A stretch of 64,000 nt of DNA from Polyangiales bacterium. Its GTDB lineage: Bacteria; Myxococcota_A; Polyangia; Polyangiales; JADJQN01. The position numbers were made by a program, and so were the translations under genes. This document shows positions 48,501-55,932 of this stretch, piece after piece. The stretch is from positions 384,001-448,000 of the forward strand of contig CAXNJO010000004.1 of NCBI GenBank assembly GCA_964202905.1. The letters are read 5' to 3'. The notes beneath the pieces are model-generated. The model had not been told where the DNA came from. It saw nothing but the letters and a program-made list of their open reading frames with translations, and searched no databases. Numbering within the stretch: position 1 is the stretch's first letter; the number at the start of each line of letters is the position of its first letter.

Positions 48501-49799
48501 TCAGCGGACGTAGCGCGGGTCGGCGTGATGGAGGGCGAGGACGTCGAGGAGGAGGCTGTAGCGCTGGCCAAGCGCGGTCGCGCTCACTTCGTAGCGACGC
48601 GCGATCGCGGACTGCGTCACGCCTCGCTCGGACTGCAGCGCCCGCAACGCGTACTCGACGGCCGCCGCGTGGACGCCCGGCTTGCCCACGCGCGGCTGGT
48701 AGATGGCATAGAAGTCCCGCCACATCGTGCGGGCGAGCATGCGCTGCCGGGCGGGACACCCGGACTCGCTCATCTTGCGCTCGAGCAATGCGTCGACGGT
48801 GTGCCACGAGATGCGGTCCCCAACCTGGGGCGGCCCCACCTCCGGGACATCGGGCGCGACACCGACGAAGCGCGGATGCGAGGAGAGCGCCCCGGGCGGC
48901 GCCGCGGCGGGTGCGCCCGCCGACCCCTGCGCGGCTCCCGGTGTCGCCGAGCGGGAGCGGCCAGTCCCCGCGGGACGACGCGGGCTTTGGGGCGACGGAG
49001 CCGAGGACGACGCGTGCGCCCGCGTCGACCGGGGCGTCGGGGTGCGGGTCGACCCGGGACGCGCCCGTGCAGGGTCGAGCGACGCGGGGTCGAGTGACGC
49101 GGGTTCCACCTCGCCGAGGTCGACGAAGCGGCTCCGCTTGGACGGCAGCGAGGGTGACCGACGCTGGACTGCGGGGGCCGGGGTGGCGTGAGGCCCCTCT
49201 CCGACGGGCGCGCCGCGCTCGACCCATGAGAGCAGGGCGCGGTGCTCTCGGTTGCGCGGGGCCGCGCGCACGGCGTCCGCGGCAAGCCCGCGGGCCTCGG
49301 CGAGGGTGCCCATCCCCGCCAGACAATGCGCGAGGGAGGCGGTGATCTCGTCCTCGAGCGGCTCGAGACGATGCGCGCTCCGCAGGTGGGGCAGCGCCTG
49401 CGCCGGGGTCGCGAGCGCGACGTCGAGGAGGTGACCGACGTTGTGGTGGTACCAGGGGTTGCGCGGCGACGAGGAGAGCGCACGGCGGTAGTGACCGACC
49501 GCGACGCGGAAGTTGCCGAGCAGCGCGTGGCAGAGGCCCATCAGCGCGTGTACGACGTCGTCGTCCCGGCGCTCGCGGACGATCCGCCGGAGGTGCAGCA
49601 ACGCGCGCCAGGGGTTCTCCTCCACCCAGAACTCGGCGAGGTGCCGGTGCGCGAAGAGCGCGTGGTCGCTGCCCTCCGGCGCAACGGCAACAAGCCGCTC
49701 GAGCACCGGGAACAACTCCACGCGCGGCCGGGCGCGCCGAAGCAGGCCTTCGGCCTCCCTCCGCAGTTCGTCGACGCGCGTGTCCCCTCTCCGCGACAT
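48501..49799 (-). CDS. TPR protein with a C-terminal TFIIB/cyclin-like HTH domain
   Basis: N-terminal TPRs; Pro-rich linker; KPGVHAAAVEY...TQSAIARRYEVSATALGQRY. Confidence 0.7.
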   Translation of the reverse strand: MSRRGDTRVDELRREAEGLLRRARPRVELFPVLERLVAVAPEGSDHALFAHRHLAEFWVEENPWRALLHLRRIVRERRDDDVVHALMGLCHALLGNFRVAVGHYRRALSSSPRNPWYHHNVGHLLDVALATPAQALPHLRSAHRLEPLEDEITASLAHCLAGMGTLAEARGLAADAVRAAPRNREHRALLSWVERGAPVGEGPHATPAPAVQRRSPSLPSKRSRFVDLGEVEPASLDPASLDPARARPGSTRTPTPRSTRAHASSSAPSPQSPRRPAGTGRSRSATPGAAQGSAGAPAAAPPGALSSHPRFVGVAPDVPEVGPPQVGDRISWHTVDALLERKMSESGCPARQRMLARTMWRDFYAIYQPRVGKPGVHAAAVEYALRALQSERGVTQSAIARRYEVSATALGQRYSLLLDVLALHHADPRYVR

Positions 49800-50011
49800 C
49801 CGCGCGGCTATATACCGCGGCAAAATCCATGGCAAGCAGCCACAGGGCGCCCACTCACAACGCCCTGCGCGCACGCCCGTCGACGGCGTACACCCGGCGG
49901 CTGAGTGACTTGCCGGCATCGCGCCCCCGCGGGCCTCGCGCGCCCTCGGTCACGCTCCAAGGCGATGCCGTACGGCACTTCGCGCGGACGGGCACACACG
50001 GCCCGGCGCCG

Positions 50012-50737
50012 TCAGGCCTCGCGGCGTGCGATGGCGACGACGAAACCACCGAGCCAGCGCAGCGGTGAGGTCGCGGCGAGTTTCTCGGCCCATGCGAGCC
50101 CAGGGCCGACCAGCGGCACCTTGTGGACGAACGCTGCGGGCGTGAGCACGCGGATGCCCCGAAGTTCGACGAGGCGCATCCCCGGCGGGAGGATCTTCGG
50201 GACGACCGTCGGCGGATCCCAGCGCGTGTAGACGTCCGCCTCGGTGCGGCCCTCGGAGATGGGCTGCGGTCCGGCGAGCCGCTTGGCGACGTAGCGCAGG
50301 CTCCAAGGGTTGTAGAGCTCGATCGCGACGTGTCCGCCGACACGCGTGACCCGCGCCATCTCGGCGACCGCCCGCCCGAGGTCGGGGATGTGCGCGAGCA
50401 CTTTGAAGCTGCACGTGAGGTCGAAGGACTGATCCGCGAAGGGAATGGCCGTCGCGCTCCCGAGCACGACCTCCAGCCCGCGCTCCTTCGCGACGCGCAC
50501 CATCCCGGGGCTGACGTCGAGCCCGCGCGCGCTCCGTGCCGATTCCCGGAGTCGCGAGAGCACGAGCCCCGTGCCGCAGCCAACCTCGAGGACGTGCTTG
50601 TGCCGGGCGTACGCGGCGATGGCGTCGAGTTCGAGGTCGTCGAGCATCGCGTGGTAGCCGCGGCCGCGCTCGCGCTCGTACCAGCCGCTGAAGTCGTCGT
50701 AATAGGCGCGGTTGCGCGTGTCGTCCGTCTTCGCCAT
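50012..50737 (-). CDS. Class I SAM-dependent methyltransferase
   Basis: VLEVGCGTG, GLDVSPGM, IPFADQSFD, EMARVTRVGG. Confidence 0.92.
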   Translation of the reverse strand: MAKTDDTRNRAYYDDFSGWYERERGRGYHAMLDDLELDAIAAYARHKHVLEVGCGTGLVLSRLRESARSARGLDVSPGMVRVAKERGLEVVLGSATAIPFADQSFDLTCSFKVLAHIPDLGRAVAEMARVTRVGGHVAIELYNPWSLRYVAKRLAGPQPISEGRTEADVYTRWDPPTVVPKILPPGMRLVELRGIRVLTPAAFVHKVPLVGPGLAWAEKLAATSPLRWLGGFVVAIARREA

Positions 50738-50824
50738 GGGTGGCGCGGACTACCCTCGCGCGCGCCCGGACGCAAGCGGATCGGGGCCCGCCAGCCGGAG
50801 ACGGCGGCTGCGGCCCCGCGTCGA

Positions 50825-51940
50825 TCAGCGGGCGAGCAGCGCGTCGTAGAGAGACTCGTAGGCCGCCGCCATCGGTGCGGGCGCGTGCCGGGCCTCGACC
50901 GCCGCGCGCGCACGGACGCCGAGCGCAGCGCATTGCGCGGCATCGTCGAGGAGCCGATCGAGCGCCGCAGCGAGCGCGTCCGGCGACGCATCGACCGCGA
51001 CGGCCGCCTCGTCGTCTGCGAGCTCCGCCGCGGGCGTGTCGCGAGCGACGACGACGGGCCGCGCGAGACTCATGGCCTCGAGCAGGACGAGCGGGTGGTC
51101 CATCTTCGCGTAGAGATCCGTCGACGGGAGCGCGACGACGTCGGCGGCGGCGAGCAGCGCGTGGATCGCGCGGGTCTCGCCCGGCCCACCGGGTGCGGGC
51201 CTCGAGGCCCGCCGCACGCACGCGCGCCCGCACACGCACCTCGGCGTCACGGGCCGCTGGCGTCTTCGCCCGACACGCGAGCACCAGCCACACGTCGCGC
51301 CGGGCGAGCGCCGCGACCGCGTCCACGATGCGGTCCGCGCCCTCCCCCACCTCGAGATCACCGGGATACAGCACGACGGGCACATCGAGCGGCCAGCCAT
51401 GCTCGCGCCGGGTCGCGCGGCGCGCATCGTCGCTCGCGGGCGCGAGCGGCGCGATGGCCGGGGCGATGCGCGACGATGCGCGCGCGGGGCACGCCCTCCG
51501 CGAGAAAGCGCGCCTCCGTGTGCCGCGAGAGCACGACGCTCACGTCCGCGAAGAGCACCTCGCGCAGGTCCACGCCGAGGCGTGGGCGCGCTCGCGATCG
51601 TGTGCACCGTGGGCACGCGGCGGGCGCGCGATGCGAGCCGGCCGACGCGCGAAGAGCGTGGGTTCGGAGCGAAGAAGAAGTGCCAGAGATCCGCGCGATC
51701 GCCCGCGAAGAGTCGGAGCGCGACGCGCGCGTTGTCGACGAGCGCGGGCGAGAAGCCGCCCGACCCGCGCGCGTAGGGCGTCTCGACGCGGGCTCTGGGC
51801 ACGCCGGGGTCGGCCCCGGGGCGCGTGAGCAGCGTGGGCGTGTAGCGCACGAGCGCCCCCGCGAGGTCGCGCACGAGGTTCTTGCCGCTGTCGTTCCACG
51901 GCGGCGCGACGGGCTTCGAGACGAGGAGGACGGTGCGCAT
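50825..51940 (-). CDS. Glycosyltransferase family 4; several frameshifts
   Basis: SKPVAPPWND N-terminus; ADVVALPS...PLVLLEAMSLARPVV C-terminus; middle part spread over other frames (VVLYPGDLE). Confidence 0.8.
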   Translation of the reverse strand: MRTVLLVSKPVAPPWNDSGKNLVRDLAGALVRYTPTLLTRPGADPGVPRARVETPYARGSGGFSPALVDNARVALRLFAGDRADLWHFFFAPNPRSSRVGRLASRARRVPTVHTIASAPTPRRGPARGALRGRERRALAAHGGALSRGGRAPRAHRRASPRPSRRSRPRATMRAARPGASMAGRSMCPSCCIPVISRWGRARTASWTRSRRSPGATCGWCSRVGRRRQRPVTPRCVCGRACVRRASRPAPGGPGETRAIHALLAAADVVALPSTDLYAKMDHPLVLLEAMSLARPVVVARDTPAAELADDEAAVAVDASPDALAAALDRLLDDAAQCAALGVRARAAVEARHAPAPMAAAYESLYDALLAR

Positions 51941-52114
51941 CGGCGCGACGAGCGTGGCAACCCGGTGACCACGAGCGCGGCGACGTTCTCGCGCATCCAC
52001 GCAGGGTCGTCGCGGCGCCCGACTTTGACAGGTCAGCGCGACTGCGTGCCGCATCCTCTTGGGCCCTTGAGTCTGCCGCGTGACGGCGCATCATCCGACG
52101 AGAGGAACCTGTCC

Positions 52115-52603
52115 ATGCCCGCCGCGCCCCGCTCCCCCCACTACCTCCGTGTCGCCCGCGCCCTGGCGCTTGCTCACCGGGCTCGCCGGCTTCGCCGGCG
52201 TGCGGCGGGGATGACGAGCACAACGCCGCCCGTCGATTCGGGCGTGGACTCCGGAGCCCTCGCCGACGCCGGACGCGGGCGACCGATGCGAGCATGGGCG
52301 ACGACGCAGGAGCGGACGCCGACGCCAGAGCCCGGACGGCGATGCGGGCGGGGACGGCGATGCGAGCGGCGAGGCAACGACGCAGGCGCGGACTGGCCGA
52401 TGCGGGCGGCGGGCAACGACGCAGGCGTGTTGGCGGACGCCGGCGTGCCGAGTGCGACGCCGGCGGCGACCGCTGCGCGACGTGCGCCTGCGATTTCATG
52501 GCCCCCGGGGCCGATGGCGGCGCGGCGTCGTGCGAGGCGCTCGGCTTCTTCGAATGCTGCCCGGCCGTCGGGCCGCTCTTCCCGCCCGACTCTGCCCGCC
52601 TGA
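52115..52603 (+). CDS. Small lipoprotein with DAG-rich linker and Cys-rich C-terminus ending GPLFPPD(LPA); multiple frameshifts
   Basis: AGAGGA RBS; MPAAPRSPHYLRVARALAL; CGGDD in a shifted frame; DSG/DAG repeats; CATCACDF...SCEALGFFECCPAVGPLFPPD; stop at 52601-52603. Confidence 0.6.
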   Translation: MPAAPRSPHYLRVARALALAHRARRLRRRAAGMTSTTPPVDSGVDSGALADAGRGRPMRAWATTQERTPTPEPGRRCGRGRRCERRGNDAGADWPMRAAGNDAGVLADAGVPSATPAATAARRAPAISWPPGPMAARRRARRSASSNAARPSGRSSRPTLPA

Positions 52604-52611
52604 CGCGCGCC

Positions 52612-53458
52612 GTGAGCGACGCTCCGCACCACGCTCTCGGGGACGGCGCTCGAGGCCGAGTCGCGGACCGTCGAGCAGGGGCTCGCGCGCACGCGCCCCG
52701 ACCCTTCGCTGCGCTTCGACCCCGCGCCGTGGGATGCCCGCCTCGTCGCGCACGTCGCCGGGCAGTGGCAGGCGCGCATGATCTTCGAGCACCGCTCGAG
52801 CACGGTCTTCTCGCAGCTCGCGGGGCAGCTGTTCGAGGCCGGCGCGACGCTCGACGCGAAGATCGTGATGTTGCGCATGGCGCAGGACGAGTTGCGACAC
52901 GCCGTGACGTGCGCGGAGGTCGTGCGCGCGCTCGGCGGCGACGCGGAGCCGAAGGTCGATCTGCGCGTGGAGCCCCTCGCGACCCACGCCGGCGTCAGCC
53001 CCGAAGAGCGCGCCTTGCGCAACGTGATCTTCACGACCTCGTGCTCCGAGCTCGTCGCGTGCGCGCGCTTCGTCGAAACGCTCGAGCACGTCGAGGACGT
53101 CTACCTTCGGCAGGCCTTCCGCACGCTCCTCGCCGACGAGATCCTCCACGCCCAGTTCGGCTTCCACTACCTCGAGGCGTGGCGTCCGTGGCTCGACGCG
53201 CACCCGGACGCGCGCGCATCGCTCGAGCGCTTCCTCACCGTCGCCTTCGCGGCGCTCGAGCGCGAGCTCGCGCCGCGTCCGCCCTGGCCGCGACTCCCCG
53301 CGCAGCTCGCCGCGCAGTACCGCGCGCTCGGCGGCGACGACCCGGAGCGCGCCCACGCCGTCTTCCACGGAACAATCGAAGGGGCCGTGCTCCCGGGTCT
53401 CACCCGCTTCGGCATCGACGCCGAACGCTGCTGGCGCGAACGTGCGCGCGTCGCCTGA
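52612..53458 (+). CDS. Ferritin-like diiron domain protein
   Basis: WQARMIFEHRS, QDELRH, CSELVA, ADEILHAQFGF give the E/ExxH/E/ExxH ligand set; GTG at 52612 needs a 1-nt correction near 52618. Confidence 0.85.
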
Positions 53459-53460
53459 CC

Positions 53461-53508
53461 GCGCCCCGTTTGACTTCGTGACGCAGGGCGTTACGAAACG
53501 CGGGGCGC
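53461..53508 (+). terminator. Long stem-loop immediately after the ferritin-like gene
   Basis: gcgccccg...ttcgtgacgc-agg-gcgttacgaa...cggggcgc; no U-tract, so the function is uncertain. Confidence 0.45.
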
Positions 53509-53536: not shown

Positions 53537-54148
<612 letters not shown>

Positions 54149-54332
54149 CGGCCCCCTCCGCGGCAACGCGCGCGCAGCCCAACCGCGGGGCGCCCACACG
54201 GCAGCCGTCGGCGGCGTCATCCCCCAGGACGGGCCGCGCCGCCTTCCTCGCCCGACGTCGTCGACGCGGAAGCCTACGCGCCGCGCCCGGGCAGCGCCCA
54301 CGTCACGCTCGGACCGGGACGAGCGGCTGCGC

Positions 54333-55376
54333 TCAGTGGCCGTGCGGGTCGCGCGGCCGCTGCGGTGGGGGCGCGACCGGGCCACCGGGGAGACTGCCGG
54401 GCGGCGGGCTCGCACCGCGCGGCTGTCCCGCGCCCGCCGGCGCGATCGGACGCGTCGGCGCGGCCTGGGCGGCCCCCCCGCGCACGCGACGCACGACGAC
54501 GCGCGTGATGCGGACCGGCGTCCGCGGGCGGTTCTCTTCACCGCCGAGCTGCGGGACGCGGGCGATGCGCCCGATGACGTCGGGCTGCAGACAACGGCCG
54601 AAGACCGTGTACGTGTTCATCGCGTCGAGCTGGGGGGCGGCGCCATCGAGCAGGAAGAACTGCGCGCCGTTCTGGTTGGGCGCGGTGTTCGCCATGCAGA
54701 GGAGCCCCGCGCGGTCGTGCTTGAGGTCGGCGCGGAGCTCGTCTGGGATCGTGTACCCGACCGTGCCCGTGCCATCGCCGAGGTAGTCGCCGCCCTGGAT
54801 CATGTAACCCGGGATGACCCGATGCAAGATGGTGTCGCGGTACATCGGCCGCGTGACCCAGGCCCCCGCGCGCGCGTCCCACCAGGGGCGCATGCCCCGC
54901 GCGAGGCCGATGAAGTTGGCGACCGTGTTCGGGGTCTTGTCGGCGAAGAGGTCGCACTGCATCGTGCCGAGATCCGTGCCGATCTCCGCGACGAGCGTGC
55001 CGTCCGTGCCGAGGCCGGCGACGGACTCCTCCAGCGTGAACGAGCCCGCCTCCGGGTCCGGCGAGGTGGGCGTGCGGACGAGGTTCGCGAGCGCGCGGGC
55101 CCGCGCGGTGTCGCCCGTCTTGCTGGGGGTCGGGCCACCGCGCTTCGTCGGCTCGGCGAGGATGACACGGTAGCCGTCGACGACGATTTCCGTCTCGCCG
55201 CCCGCCTTCTTCACCGCGGCGGCGCCGCCTGCGCCTCCGCCCGGAGAGACGCCCGGCGTGGCCCCGCAGCCGCTCGTGTCGCAGCCCCCCGCGAGCGCAG
55301 CGACAAGCGCCAGCGTGGCGACGTTGCGCCGCGCGCGGCGTAGCGACCGCGTGTCCGAAACTGAATGGCTATTCAC
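54333..55376 (-). CDS. Cyclophilin-type peptidyl-prolyl isomerase, probable lipoprotein
   Basis: TPNTVANFIGLA, HRVIPGYMIQGGD, CMANTAPNQNGAQFF, YTVFG; LAGGC lipobox. Confidence 0.9.
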   Translation of the reverse strand: MNSHSVSDTRSLRRARRNVATLALVAALAGGCDTSGCGATPGVSPGGGAGGAAAVKKAGGETEIVVDGYRVILAEPTKRGGPTPSKTGDTARARALANLVRTPTSPDPEAGSFTLEESVAGLGTDGTLVAEIGTDLGTMQCDLFADKTPNTVANFIGLARGMRPWWDARAGAWVTRPMYRDTILHRVIPGYMIQGGDYLGDGTGTVGYTIPDELRADLKHDRAGLLCMANTAPNQNGAQFFLLDGAAPQLDAMNTYTVFGRCLQPDVIGRIARVPQLGGEENRPRTPVRITRVVVRRVRGGAAQAAPTRPIAPAGAGQPRGASPPPGSLPGGPVAPPPQRPRDPHGH

Positions 55377-55932
55377 TGCGACTCCCTCCCCGCGGCTCGG
55401 CCTCGCGCGGGACACCGACGAAGCGAACGAACACTCCGGGACCGATGCCGTGACGCCGGGCGGTGCCCGCGTTCAACTCGAGAACGTAATGCGAATCACC
55501 CTCGACCTCGCGCGGGTCATCCGTCTGCGGCTCGGCGTTCTCGACGACGCCGAGTACGCGCATCGCCGACGTGATGAACACCATGTCGAGCGGCAGATAG
55601 GTGTTGTGCATCCAGAAAGACAGATGCTCCTGCGCGTCGAAGAGGAAGAGCATCCCGGCGTTCTCCGCCATCTGACGCCGGAACATCAGGCCGCGCTGGC
55701 GTGTGCGGTCTTCGTTGGCGACCTCGACCTCGAAGGTCACCGGCTCGCGCCCCGGCGGCTCGAGCACGACCTGCCCGCGCGGCAGCGAAGGCGGCGCCGG
55801 GCGGGACGACGCGGGACGCGGTGCGTCGACGTCGGGCTCCGCAGCGGGCACGGTGGAGCCGCCGCCCGAGCACGCGGCGCCGGAGAGCGAGAGCGCGAGG
55901 GTGAGCACGGCGAGGGGCTTCAGCGGGCGCAT
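55369..55932 (-). CDS. DUF192 family lipoprotein
   Basis: RQRGLMFR, GMLFLF, FWMHNTYLPLDMVFI, YVLELNAG. Confidence 0.92.
   Translation of the reverse strand: MRPLKPLAVLTLALSLSGAACSGGGSTVPAAEPDVDAPRPASSRPAPPSLPRGQVVLEPPGREPVTFEVEVANEDRTRQRGLMFRRQMAENAGMLFLFDAQEHLSFWMHNTYLPLDMVFITSAMRVLGVVENAEPQTDDPREVEGDSHYVLELNAGTARRHGIGPGVFVRFVGVPREAEPRGGSRSE

Follow-up and report, generated by a model that had tools for sequence, protein, structure and literature searches.

A candidate two-part tag on myxobacterial lipoproteins and its association with a ferritin-like dimetal enzyme

Closest described systems

Among known systems, the DAG-RiPPs (DybA/DybH, NedA/NedBC) appear to be the closest to the gene pair considered here. 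In these, an MNIO TIM-barrel enzyme acts on Cys (PMC13056109). As far as the available text of that study goes, the likeness lies in a lipobox precursor, a signal-less non-heme iron enzyme that would act before export, a conserved C-terminal motif and an occurrence in some Myxococcota. The present system differs in its predicted ferritin-like helical bundle, in a tail that is Cys-free, in clients that are mostly unlinked, with up to about 20 per enzyme, and in the existence of fusions. The study mined only MNIO neighbourhoods, according to its available text, and the word 'ferritin' is absent from its main text. At the locus described here the precursor carries a lipobox (Cys codon at 52201), and a signal-less enzyme is co-encoded at 60 of 69 homologous loci. 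The enzyme is not an MNIO: its model is helical and ferritin-like, and a search of it for DUF692 (MNIO) gave no match.

A reaction directed at a C-terminal tag has been reported for PflC/PosC, which cut before the small residue of the tag and leave an amide (PMC12636437, a preprint). To the extent that the preprint's accessible text describes it, the resemblance would be in the proposed alpha-carbon oxidation at a small residue that starts the tag, giving an amide, and in a leader that positions the C-terminal part. Those enzymes, unlike the present one, are alpha-ketoglutarate-dependent HEXXH mononuclear enzymes, and their precursors are not lipoproteins and carry an Ala-Arg-Met-Asp tag. MovX is also described, in the part of its report available, as making a C-terminal amide (PMC12452194).

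In genomic organisation the MYXO-CTERM/myxosortase (PMC11980579) and PEP-CTERM/exosortase systems are similar, as one enzyme serves many dispersed C-terminally tagged proteins, and Myxococcota are again involved. In the accessible accounts of these systems, dozens of surface proteins carry a tag composed of a transmembrane helix and a basic tail, which is cleaved by membrane proteases. One enzyme with many dispersed clients is found here too, whereas the helix and basic tail are replaced by ten soluble tail residues, the anchor is an N-terminal lipobox, the enzyme is a soluble metalloprotein and a second tag lies within the signal peptide. No MYXO-CTERM or PEP-CTERM model of NCBIfam scored above cut-off.

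Aldehyde-deformylating oxygenase, PaaA, MMO hydroxylase and RNR R2/R2lox share the predicted fold and the 4-Glu/2-His ligands, whereas their substrates are small molecules or acyl-carrier-bound. The pattern that marks enzyme-type diiron proteins, E/ExxH/E/ExxH on a core of four helices inside a larger helical bundle, is present in the gene 2 product. AurF and CmlI belong to the same ferritin-like superfamily; however, their usual third His is Leu or Ile here. AurF-type N-oxygenases use 3 His and 4 carboxylates, as stated in the available part of one account (PMC13108848). The literature search, from which subscription journals were largely absent, returned no description of this enzyme family or of GPxxPP tails among the matches listed. 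The gene pair is a member of an apparently undescribed Myxococcota system, and the apparently new elements are a dispensable Cys domain, a two-part tag and a one-to-many organisation in trans.

The gene pair and its reconstruction

The pair lies on the plus strand of the window, i.e. the whole stretch of 64,000 nucleotides that was analysed. A putative ribosome-binding sequence, GAGAGGA (52100..52106), precedes gene 1 (52115..52603; ATG at 52115, stop at 52601-52603), which has about 160 codons, with at least six extra bases in the assembly, and encodes a tagged client lipoprotein. Its front tag, the leader PHYLRVARALAL (52136..52203), is inside the signal peptide and ends at the lipobox Cys. 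Downstream are a low-complexity Asp/Ala/Gly linker (52204..52470) and a six-Cys cargo of the form CxxCxC...C...CC (52474..52560; Cys codons at 52474, 52483, 52489, 52531, 52555 and 52558), which probably forms three disulfides and seems replaceable across the family. The tail tag, GP-L-x-PP-D-L-x-x (52570..52600, with an extra base at 52590), contains the proposed enzyme target, at or beside the Gly. Gene 2 (52612..53458; GTG at 52612, stop at 53456-53458) encodes a signal-less, ferritin-like protein of 281 aa, a putative dimetal enzyme, and has an extra base at 52616.

An earlier note on this DNA had proposed a compact two-gene unit in which gene 1 has to be reconstructed over frameshifts. 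The unit is real, with a true gap of 7 nt in place of the 8 bp given. Gene 1 indeed needs reconstruction, its leader and lipobox, DAG-type linker, six Cys codons and GPLFPPD end being all present as the note had it, yet scattered across three frames; gene 2 is also broken, as its start codon is out of frame with its body in the window assembly. Correction from reads was the check that the note had called for. One base is missing, relative to the window, at 52112, 52168, 52190 and 52218 in short-read contigs of a related strain (run X3), at 52451 and 52455 in those of a related strain (run X1), and at 52590, 52604 and 52616 in those of related strains (runs X1 and X2). Each correction comes from one or two contigs of three public runs, at a depth of 2.5-4.3 and flagged as possibly erroneous, and the region 52254-52409 is thinly covered. 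Compensating indels are probably still inside 52254-52409, where the frame is uncertain.

With the corrections applied, gene 1 is open and retains the Cys-rich part and GPLFPPD, and gene 2 yields 281 aa, with 274 identities over 280 positions to the database protein P0001. An intact close relative of the pair (L079) has an enzyme of 78% identity. For these reasons the frameshifts are most likely assembly errors. The assembly has 73% G+C and is indel-rich, with nine single-base insertions in 1.5 kb at the pair; other broken genes in the window are therefore probably artefacts as well. Close homologues of the pair are found in Myxococcota, mostly in Polyangiales-type bins.

The long hairpin that had been noticed after gene 2 (53461..53508, plus strand) does fold, at -37.2 kcal/mol with a z of -2.19 and 2 of 200 shuffles as good, and has one full-length copy in the genome. 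The evidence for it is modest, however: it has no U-tract, and neither a sigma-70 promoter nor a plus-strand terminator was called at the locus. The neighbours at 48501-52054 (minus strand) and 53537-55932 comprise a TPR protein, a SAM methyltransferase, a frameshifted glycosyltransferase, a 203-aa ORF, a cyclophilin and a DUF192 protein. None of the window's neighbour genes recurs beside homologues of the pair, save a TPR-repeat cluster (8 loci).

Two tags and their dispersed clients

What is the conserved element of the partner gene? A partner ending in GP-x-x-PP-[D/E]-L is present at 60 of the 69 homologous loci, some of which are duplicates, and so the conserved, lipobox-bearing upstream partner that the earlier note had asked for is largely borne out. 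A tail-ending ORF is directly upstream of the enzyme at 48 loci and divergent, downstream or about 1 kb away at 12; the other 9 have none near the enzyme, 2 of them lacking flank. All 56 distinct partners have a PHYLRFARALAL-type leader, a lipobox Cys and a GP-[LI]-x-PP-[DENS] tail, a universality partly built in, as they were chosen by these motifs. The lipobox Cys is invariant in 66 aligned leaders, assigned by motif only. With leader profile A5, gene 1 is the best and only match above 14 bits in the window genome. Mature Cys, on the other hand, number 0 in 7 partners, 2 in one, 4-5 in 8 and 6-8 in 40. As the Cys number varies while leader and tail stay, the six-Cys domain is seen as cargo and not as a conserved element; the conserved element, by sequence comparison, is a two-part tag of an unusual signal-peptide leader and a Gly-Pro tail, and the six Cys are dispensable.

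Could the Cys-rich part nevertheless be the target, oxidised by the enzyme to give a metal-binding surface peptide like the bufferins or oxazolins? Of the 56 enzyme-linked partners, 35 have precisely six mature Cys, the spacing ends being invariant, and lipidated Cys-modified RiPPs exist, by the available text of one study (PMC13056109). Bufferins and oxazolins have a Cys motif in every precursor, whereas 7 of the 56 partners have no mature Cys at all. Moreover, within one genome a single enzyme coexists with 9-11 groups of cargo that differ in how their Cys are spaced, and the spacing between the last Cys and the tail Gly varies between 2 and 26. Of 73 clients (79 kept rows minus six more), 64 have an even number of Cys, as expected for disulfides. 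The Cys-directed, metal-binding product raised in the earlier note is thus very improbable.

Tail-only searches reveal genes with both tags that have no enzyme within about 2 kb on either side. Tail sites number 21, 17, 15, 12, 11, 6 and 6 in genomes G057, G106, G078, G111, G032, G150 and G142, vs 0, 0, 1, 0, 4, 1 and 1 for a reversed-pattern control. One same-clade enzyme each (447-476 bits; next best 104 bits or less) is present in G057, G106, G111, G078 and G150, and two paralogues located beside a client in these genomes have their own upstream lipoprotein. Thus, by these searches, a single same-clade enzyme seems to have as many as about twenty tagged lipoproteins at scattered sites as its clients, and the compact pair of the earlier note is only one arrangement. 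In the window genome (G000) there is one enzyme and one client, gene 1, and the many indels of this assembly could hide further clients. Three other enzymes (G091 C4, G070 and G132) have no client in the flanks analysed, the clients being on other contigs.

Client translations gave 82 rows, of which 79 were kept (L245, L247 and L250, with no leader or truncated, were dropped). The profile finds the leader in 73 of the 79, and most others show one by eye. Cargo is diverse: the 17 clients of G106 fall into 11 groups and the 15 of G057, where the locus set covers 15 of the 21 tail sites, into 9. A remote CxC...WxC pattern is common to many clients of both genomes. The residue before the tail Gly is variable in the 79 clients, and tail conservation therefore starts at Gly; the invariance of G, P, P and P is partly built in, as most clients were found by that motif. 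The tail is Pro-rich and usually 9-15 residues from the stop. A leader-first search, with a profile trained on tail-bearing proteins, many from genomes later searched, and thus partly circular, returned 54 matches, 50 of which end in GP..PP. It recovered tails that the DNA pattern had missed (GPQAPPEL, GPCAPPDW and GPAAPPEL); the four exceptions are two weak matches to ordinary lipoproteins, one short ORF and one repeat-type partner.

Co-occurrence was determined in 149 genomes (151 less G000 and the unpublished G122), among which related genomes are not independent and some are incomplete. Of the 35 genomes that have a same-clade enzyme, 32 contain the leader and 26 the tail-plus-stop pattern (82 sites); of the 114 without, 2 contain the former and 2 the latter. 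The reversed tail control gives 2 matches overall. The wide searches scored only 16 or 56 candidates per genome; G008, which ends in TGG, was dropped from the tail-plus-stop count. A first DNA tail pattern, with too long a spacer, had missed the commonest tail and given 8 matches in non-enzyme genomes. Pattern matches retrieved from the non-enzyme genomes G015, G086 (2), G112 and G096 show no leader.

The surroundings of these genes are varied. No conserved reductase, ferredoxin, protease or transporter was found near the enzymes, and no shared context around orphan clients (58 of 129 neighbour ORFs scanned). The largest neighbour cluster near enzymes, an FHA-GAF-sigma-54 activator, occurs at 10 of 60 loci, mostly in related genomes (L040, L044, L050, L054-L056, L059, L076, L084 and L087). 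Three client genes stand in tandem at L303-L305 (G050:C94) and at L182 (G111:C10), in both cases without the enzyme close by; the G050 tandem has identical leaders and different cargo. The sister WGP clade also has a client that is not linked, L313 (G002:C3), so dispersal is wider than the window clade. The 92% complete genome G064 yielded no same-clade enzyme and has two genes (L317, L318 and L319) that bear the leader and DAGIFI-type repeats and are truncated by contig ends.

The enzyme, its fusions and a proposed reaction

The full diiron ligand set read earlier in gene 2 is confirmed: E59, E93, H96, E146, E176 and H179 (codons at 52787, 52889, 52898, 53048, 53138 and 53147) are invariant in 44/44, 35/35 and 30/30 rows of three alignments, 109 rows altogether. 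H60 and H125 are also conserved. The homologue P0001 has no hydrophobic N-terminus, as befits a signal-less enzyme. The predicted model is all-helical, with ten helices (pLDDT 96.5). Its best fold matches are 6d9f and 4mud (Z 16.1), followed by PaaA, aldehyde-deformylating oxygenase and MMO (Z 15.8) and R2 (15.4), the enzyme-type matches aligning 200-243 residues at an rmsd of 2.8-4.2 and an identity of 10-18%; Dps and ferritins reach Z 12 or less, and AurF and CmlI 10.6-10.8. By predicted fold and ligands the gene 2 product is an enzyme-type ferritin-like protein, although a shared fold by itself shows no function. It appears to be a dimetal enzyme, probably diiron. The AurF-type comparison made earlier fails on this fold rank and on the third His: the position four before the second ExxH Glu, which we take to be the AurF third-His site, is Leu in 44/44 and 35/35 rows and Ile or Leu in 30/30.

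Family searches place the enzyme in no named group. The Pfam and NCBIfam scan gave no family above cut-off for enzyme or clients, the sole Pfam match of the enzyme being Rubrerythrin at 19.6 bits, under the cut-off of 22.8; the fused protein P0136 is the only one to pass that cut-off. Foldseek with the enzyme model returned no match at E 0.001 or better, the best E of a PDB sequence search was only 0.045, and a plasmid search found no match. In the Atlas search the enzyme hit only unnamed Myxococcota clusters and the partner nothing at 0.9 or more; a cluster with AurF on 18% of its members scores 0.94 against the enzyme and is a lead only. Relatives of the enzyme number 484 among 8000 candidates scored, and clustering at 50% gave 1507 representatives. 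In the phylum-wide sample 3 of 151 genomes have a match at E 1e-60, and so the enzyme clade is narrow in that sample.

Is this an iron-storage or peroxide-detoxifying ferritin or rubrerythrin that merely adjoins a lipoprotein gene, with the fused forms as plain exported enzymes? The below-threshold Rubrerythrin match is its sole Pfam match. An identity as storage ferritin, Dps or rubrerythrin was rejected on that sub-threshold score and on length, the protein having 281 residues vs about 150-190 for a four-helix subunit. The matches of its eight-helix, enzyme-type fold, at Z of about 16, stand well above those to Dps and ferritins, and the tags track the enzyme across genomes even when unlinked. 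This co-occurrence of unlinked tags largely excludes a storage protein or chance neighbour, which would now be a most surprising outcome.

Lipoprotein and enzyme are in some cases joined. Single-chain fusions number 30 among the best 150 of the 1507 representatives, and two were confirmed as single open frames in genome DNA; one apparent fused form from a search for longer proteins was rejected as an artefact. The order is a lipoprotein signal (missing in a few, which are partial records), a Cys-rich region, mostly C-x-x-W-G-P-P-x-P-P, a short linker and the enzyme, and the G and P just before the enzyme are invariant in all 30. Most fusions fall in the sister WGP clade and two group with the window clade, in a quick tree that had three badly trimmed rows and served solely to separate GPL from WGP at a broad level. 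In an AlphaFold2 prediction for one fused protein, pLDDT is 91-96 in the leader, 89 in the WGPP block and 44-55 in the linkers, and the leader is part of the region that matches 6d9f_A rigidly. The prediction gives a hint of docking of both tags on the enzyme, a high pLDDT being no contact map.

A further hint comes from three same-clade enzymes whose partners keep the leader and have a changed tail. These make up a single subclade (support 89-90), with M86A/V, T141G, T142S/C and A149N in common beside the ligand E146. As this is one evolutionary event, it is only a hint that the leader may be for recognition and the tail for the active site.

The ferritin-like protein might instead be an escort, or a redox- or oxygen-gated checkpoint, that binds both tags and times export with no covalent change. 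A two-ended grip on unrelated cargo suits a chaperone, and no linked redox partner was found; PxxP tails typically serve for docking, and the Pro-rich tail could do no more than this. The six ligands are invariant, however, the protein sits by fold with oxygenases, ahead of storage proteins, and the residues beside E146 change with tail type. An escort role is therefore considered unlikely.

The two tags, their co-occurrence with the enzyme, the one-to-many arrangement of unlinked genes, the fusions, the intact ligands and the enzyme-type fold of the model are established at the level of sequence; the reaction is inferred. On balance, these sequence comparisons point to an enzyme that probably recognises both tags and covalently changes the tail region, and the RiPP-like logic suggested for the pair in the earlier note is supported. 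The gene 2 product would be a cytoplasmic dimetal oxidase that matures a set of exported two-tag lipoproteins. The leader helix of a new prolipoprotein would bind the enzyme before export, this binding would present the GP-x-x-PP-D/E tail to the metal site, and the enzyme would oxidise the tail. The client would then take the normal Lgt/Lsp lipoprotein route, with disulfides formed outside the cytoplasm.

As to the chemistry, the most likely single reaction, proposed tentatively, is hydroxylation of the Gly alpha-carbon, by which the chain would break, the cargo would acquire a C-terminal amide and a glyoxylyl tail would be released. It is favoured because conservation starts at the Gly and the preceding residue is free, because the tail sits at the very end and fused chains could then export the lipoprotein part, and because the reaction has precedent in other folds (PflC/PosC, MovX). 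In fusions this cleavage would separate lipoprotein and enzyme. Oxidative tail amidation would be a bacterial counterpart of animal peptidylglycine amidation. The products might be a set of small, disulfide-rich peptides tethered to the membrane and all protected at the C-terminus in the same way, and their job, at a guess, is binding or recognition at the cell surface.

The main alternative, somewhat doubtful, is that recognition is the same and the tail is oxidised in place and kept, by hydroxylation of Pro, Gly or Asp/Glu, by desaturation or by a cross-link. The tail might then e.g. be glycosylated, attach the protein to the surface or stabilise it. Three invariant tail residues are Pro, with an acid next, and DAG-RiPP precedents keep the modified core, to judge from the accessible text (PMC13056109). 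Repeat-type partners of close and distant paralogues suggest chemistry at multiple sites in place, and fit it better than removal of one tail. Two of the three partners in the tail-changed subclade carry internal Gly-hydrophobic repeats; same-clade enzymes at L287 and L322 have partners with such repeats and no terminal tail. On the other side, a near-fixed tail 9-15 residues from the stop, with a free residue before its Gly, looks like a disposable tag, and export of the 30 fused chains is left unexplained.

Cleavage at the Gly remains the preferred reaction. The whole picture is a conjecture, possible rather than probable: a protease-free pathway in which a soluble diiron enzyme might read the signal peptide as a leader, cut a ten-residue Gly-Pro tail oxidatively, amidate unrelated lipoproteins and, in fusions, free itself. 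If true, this would be the first ferritin-like enzyme acting on ribosomal peptides in the literature found, the ferritin-like superfamily would join the enzymes that modify such peptides, and the signal peptide would double as an enzyme-recognition leader. An overlooked class of small lipoproteins at the surface of Polyangiales-type myxobacteria would also come to light, with as many as about 20 in a genome, for which neither Pfam nor NCBIfam has a named model. Since a single enzyme seemingly tolerates unrelated cargo flanked by two short tags, the pair of tags might become a portable tool for making amidated or otherwise tail-modified disulfide peptides with arbitrary cargo.

Variant partners take several forms. 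Those of the tail-changed subclade, at L287 (G091:C73), L338 (G071:C334) and L337 (G042:C48), keep the leader and show repeats such as DAGISV, GVVVAPDA and YDGxxVGV or a GPLVAPEM tail. Distant paralogues (L105, L107, L109 and L017; L016, L018 and L030; L118) have differing lipoprotein partners, with Asn-Ser/Ala-Pro-Pro repeats, Phe-Ser-Val-Ala (FSVA) repeats or GCIL ends. In P0250 a ferritin-like domain is fused to a 300-residue C-terminal domain that has no Pfam match. At L022 (G027:C315) a remote ferritin-like protein follows a long Cys-containing region, and the junction, CGTGRKPEG, is again a Gly-led motif just before the enzyme.
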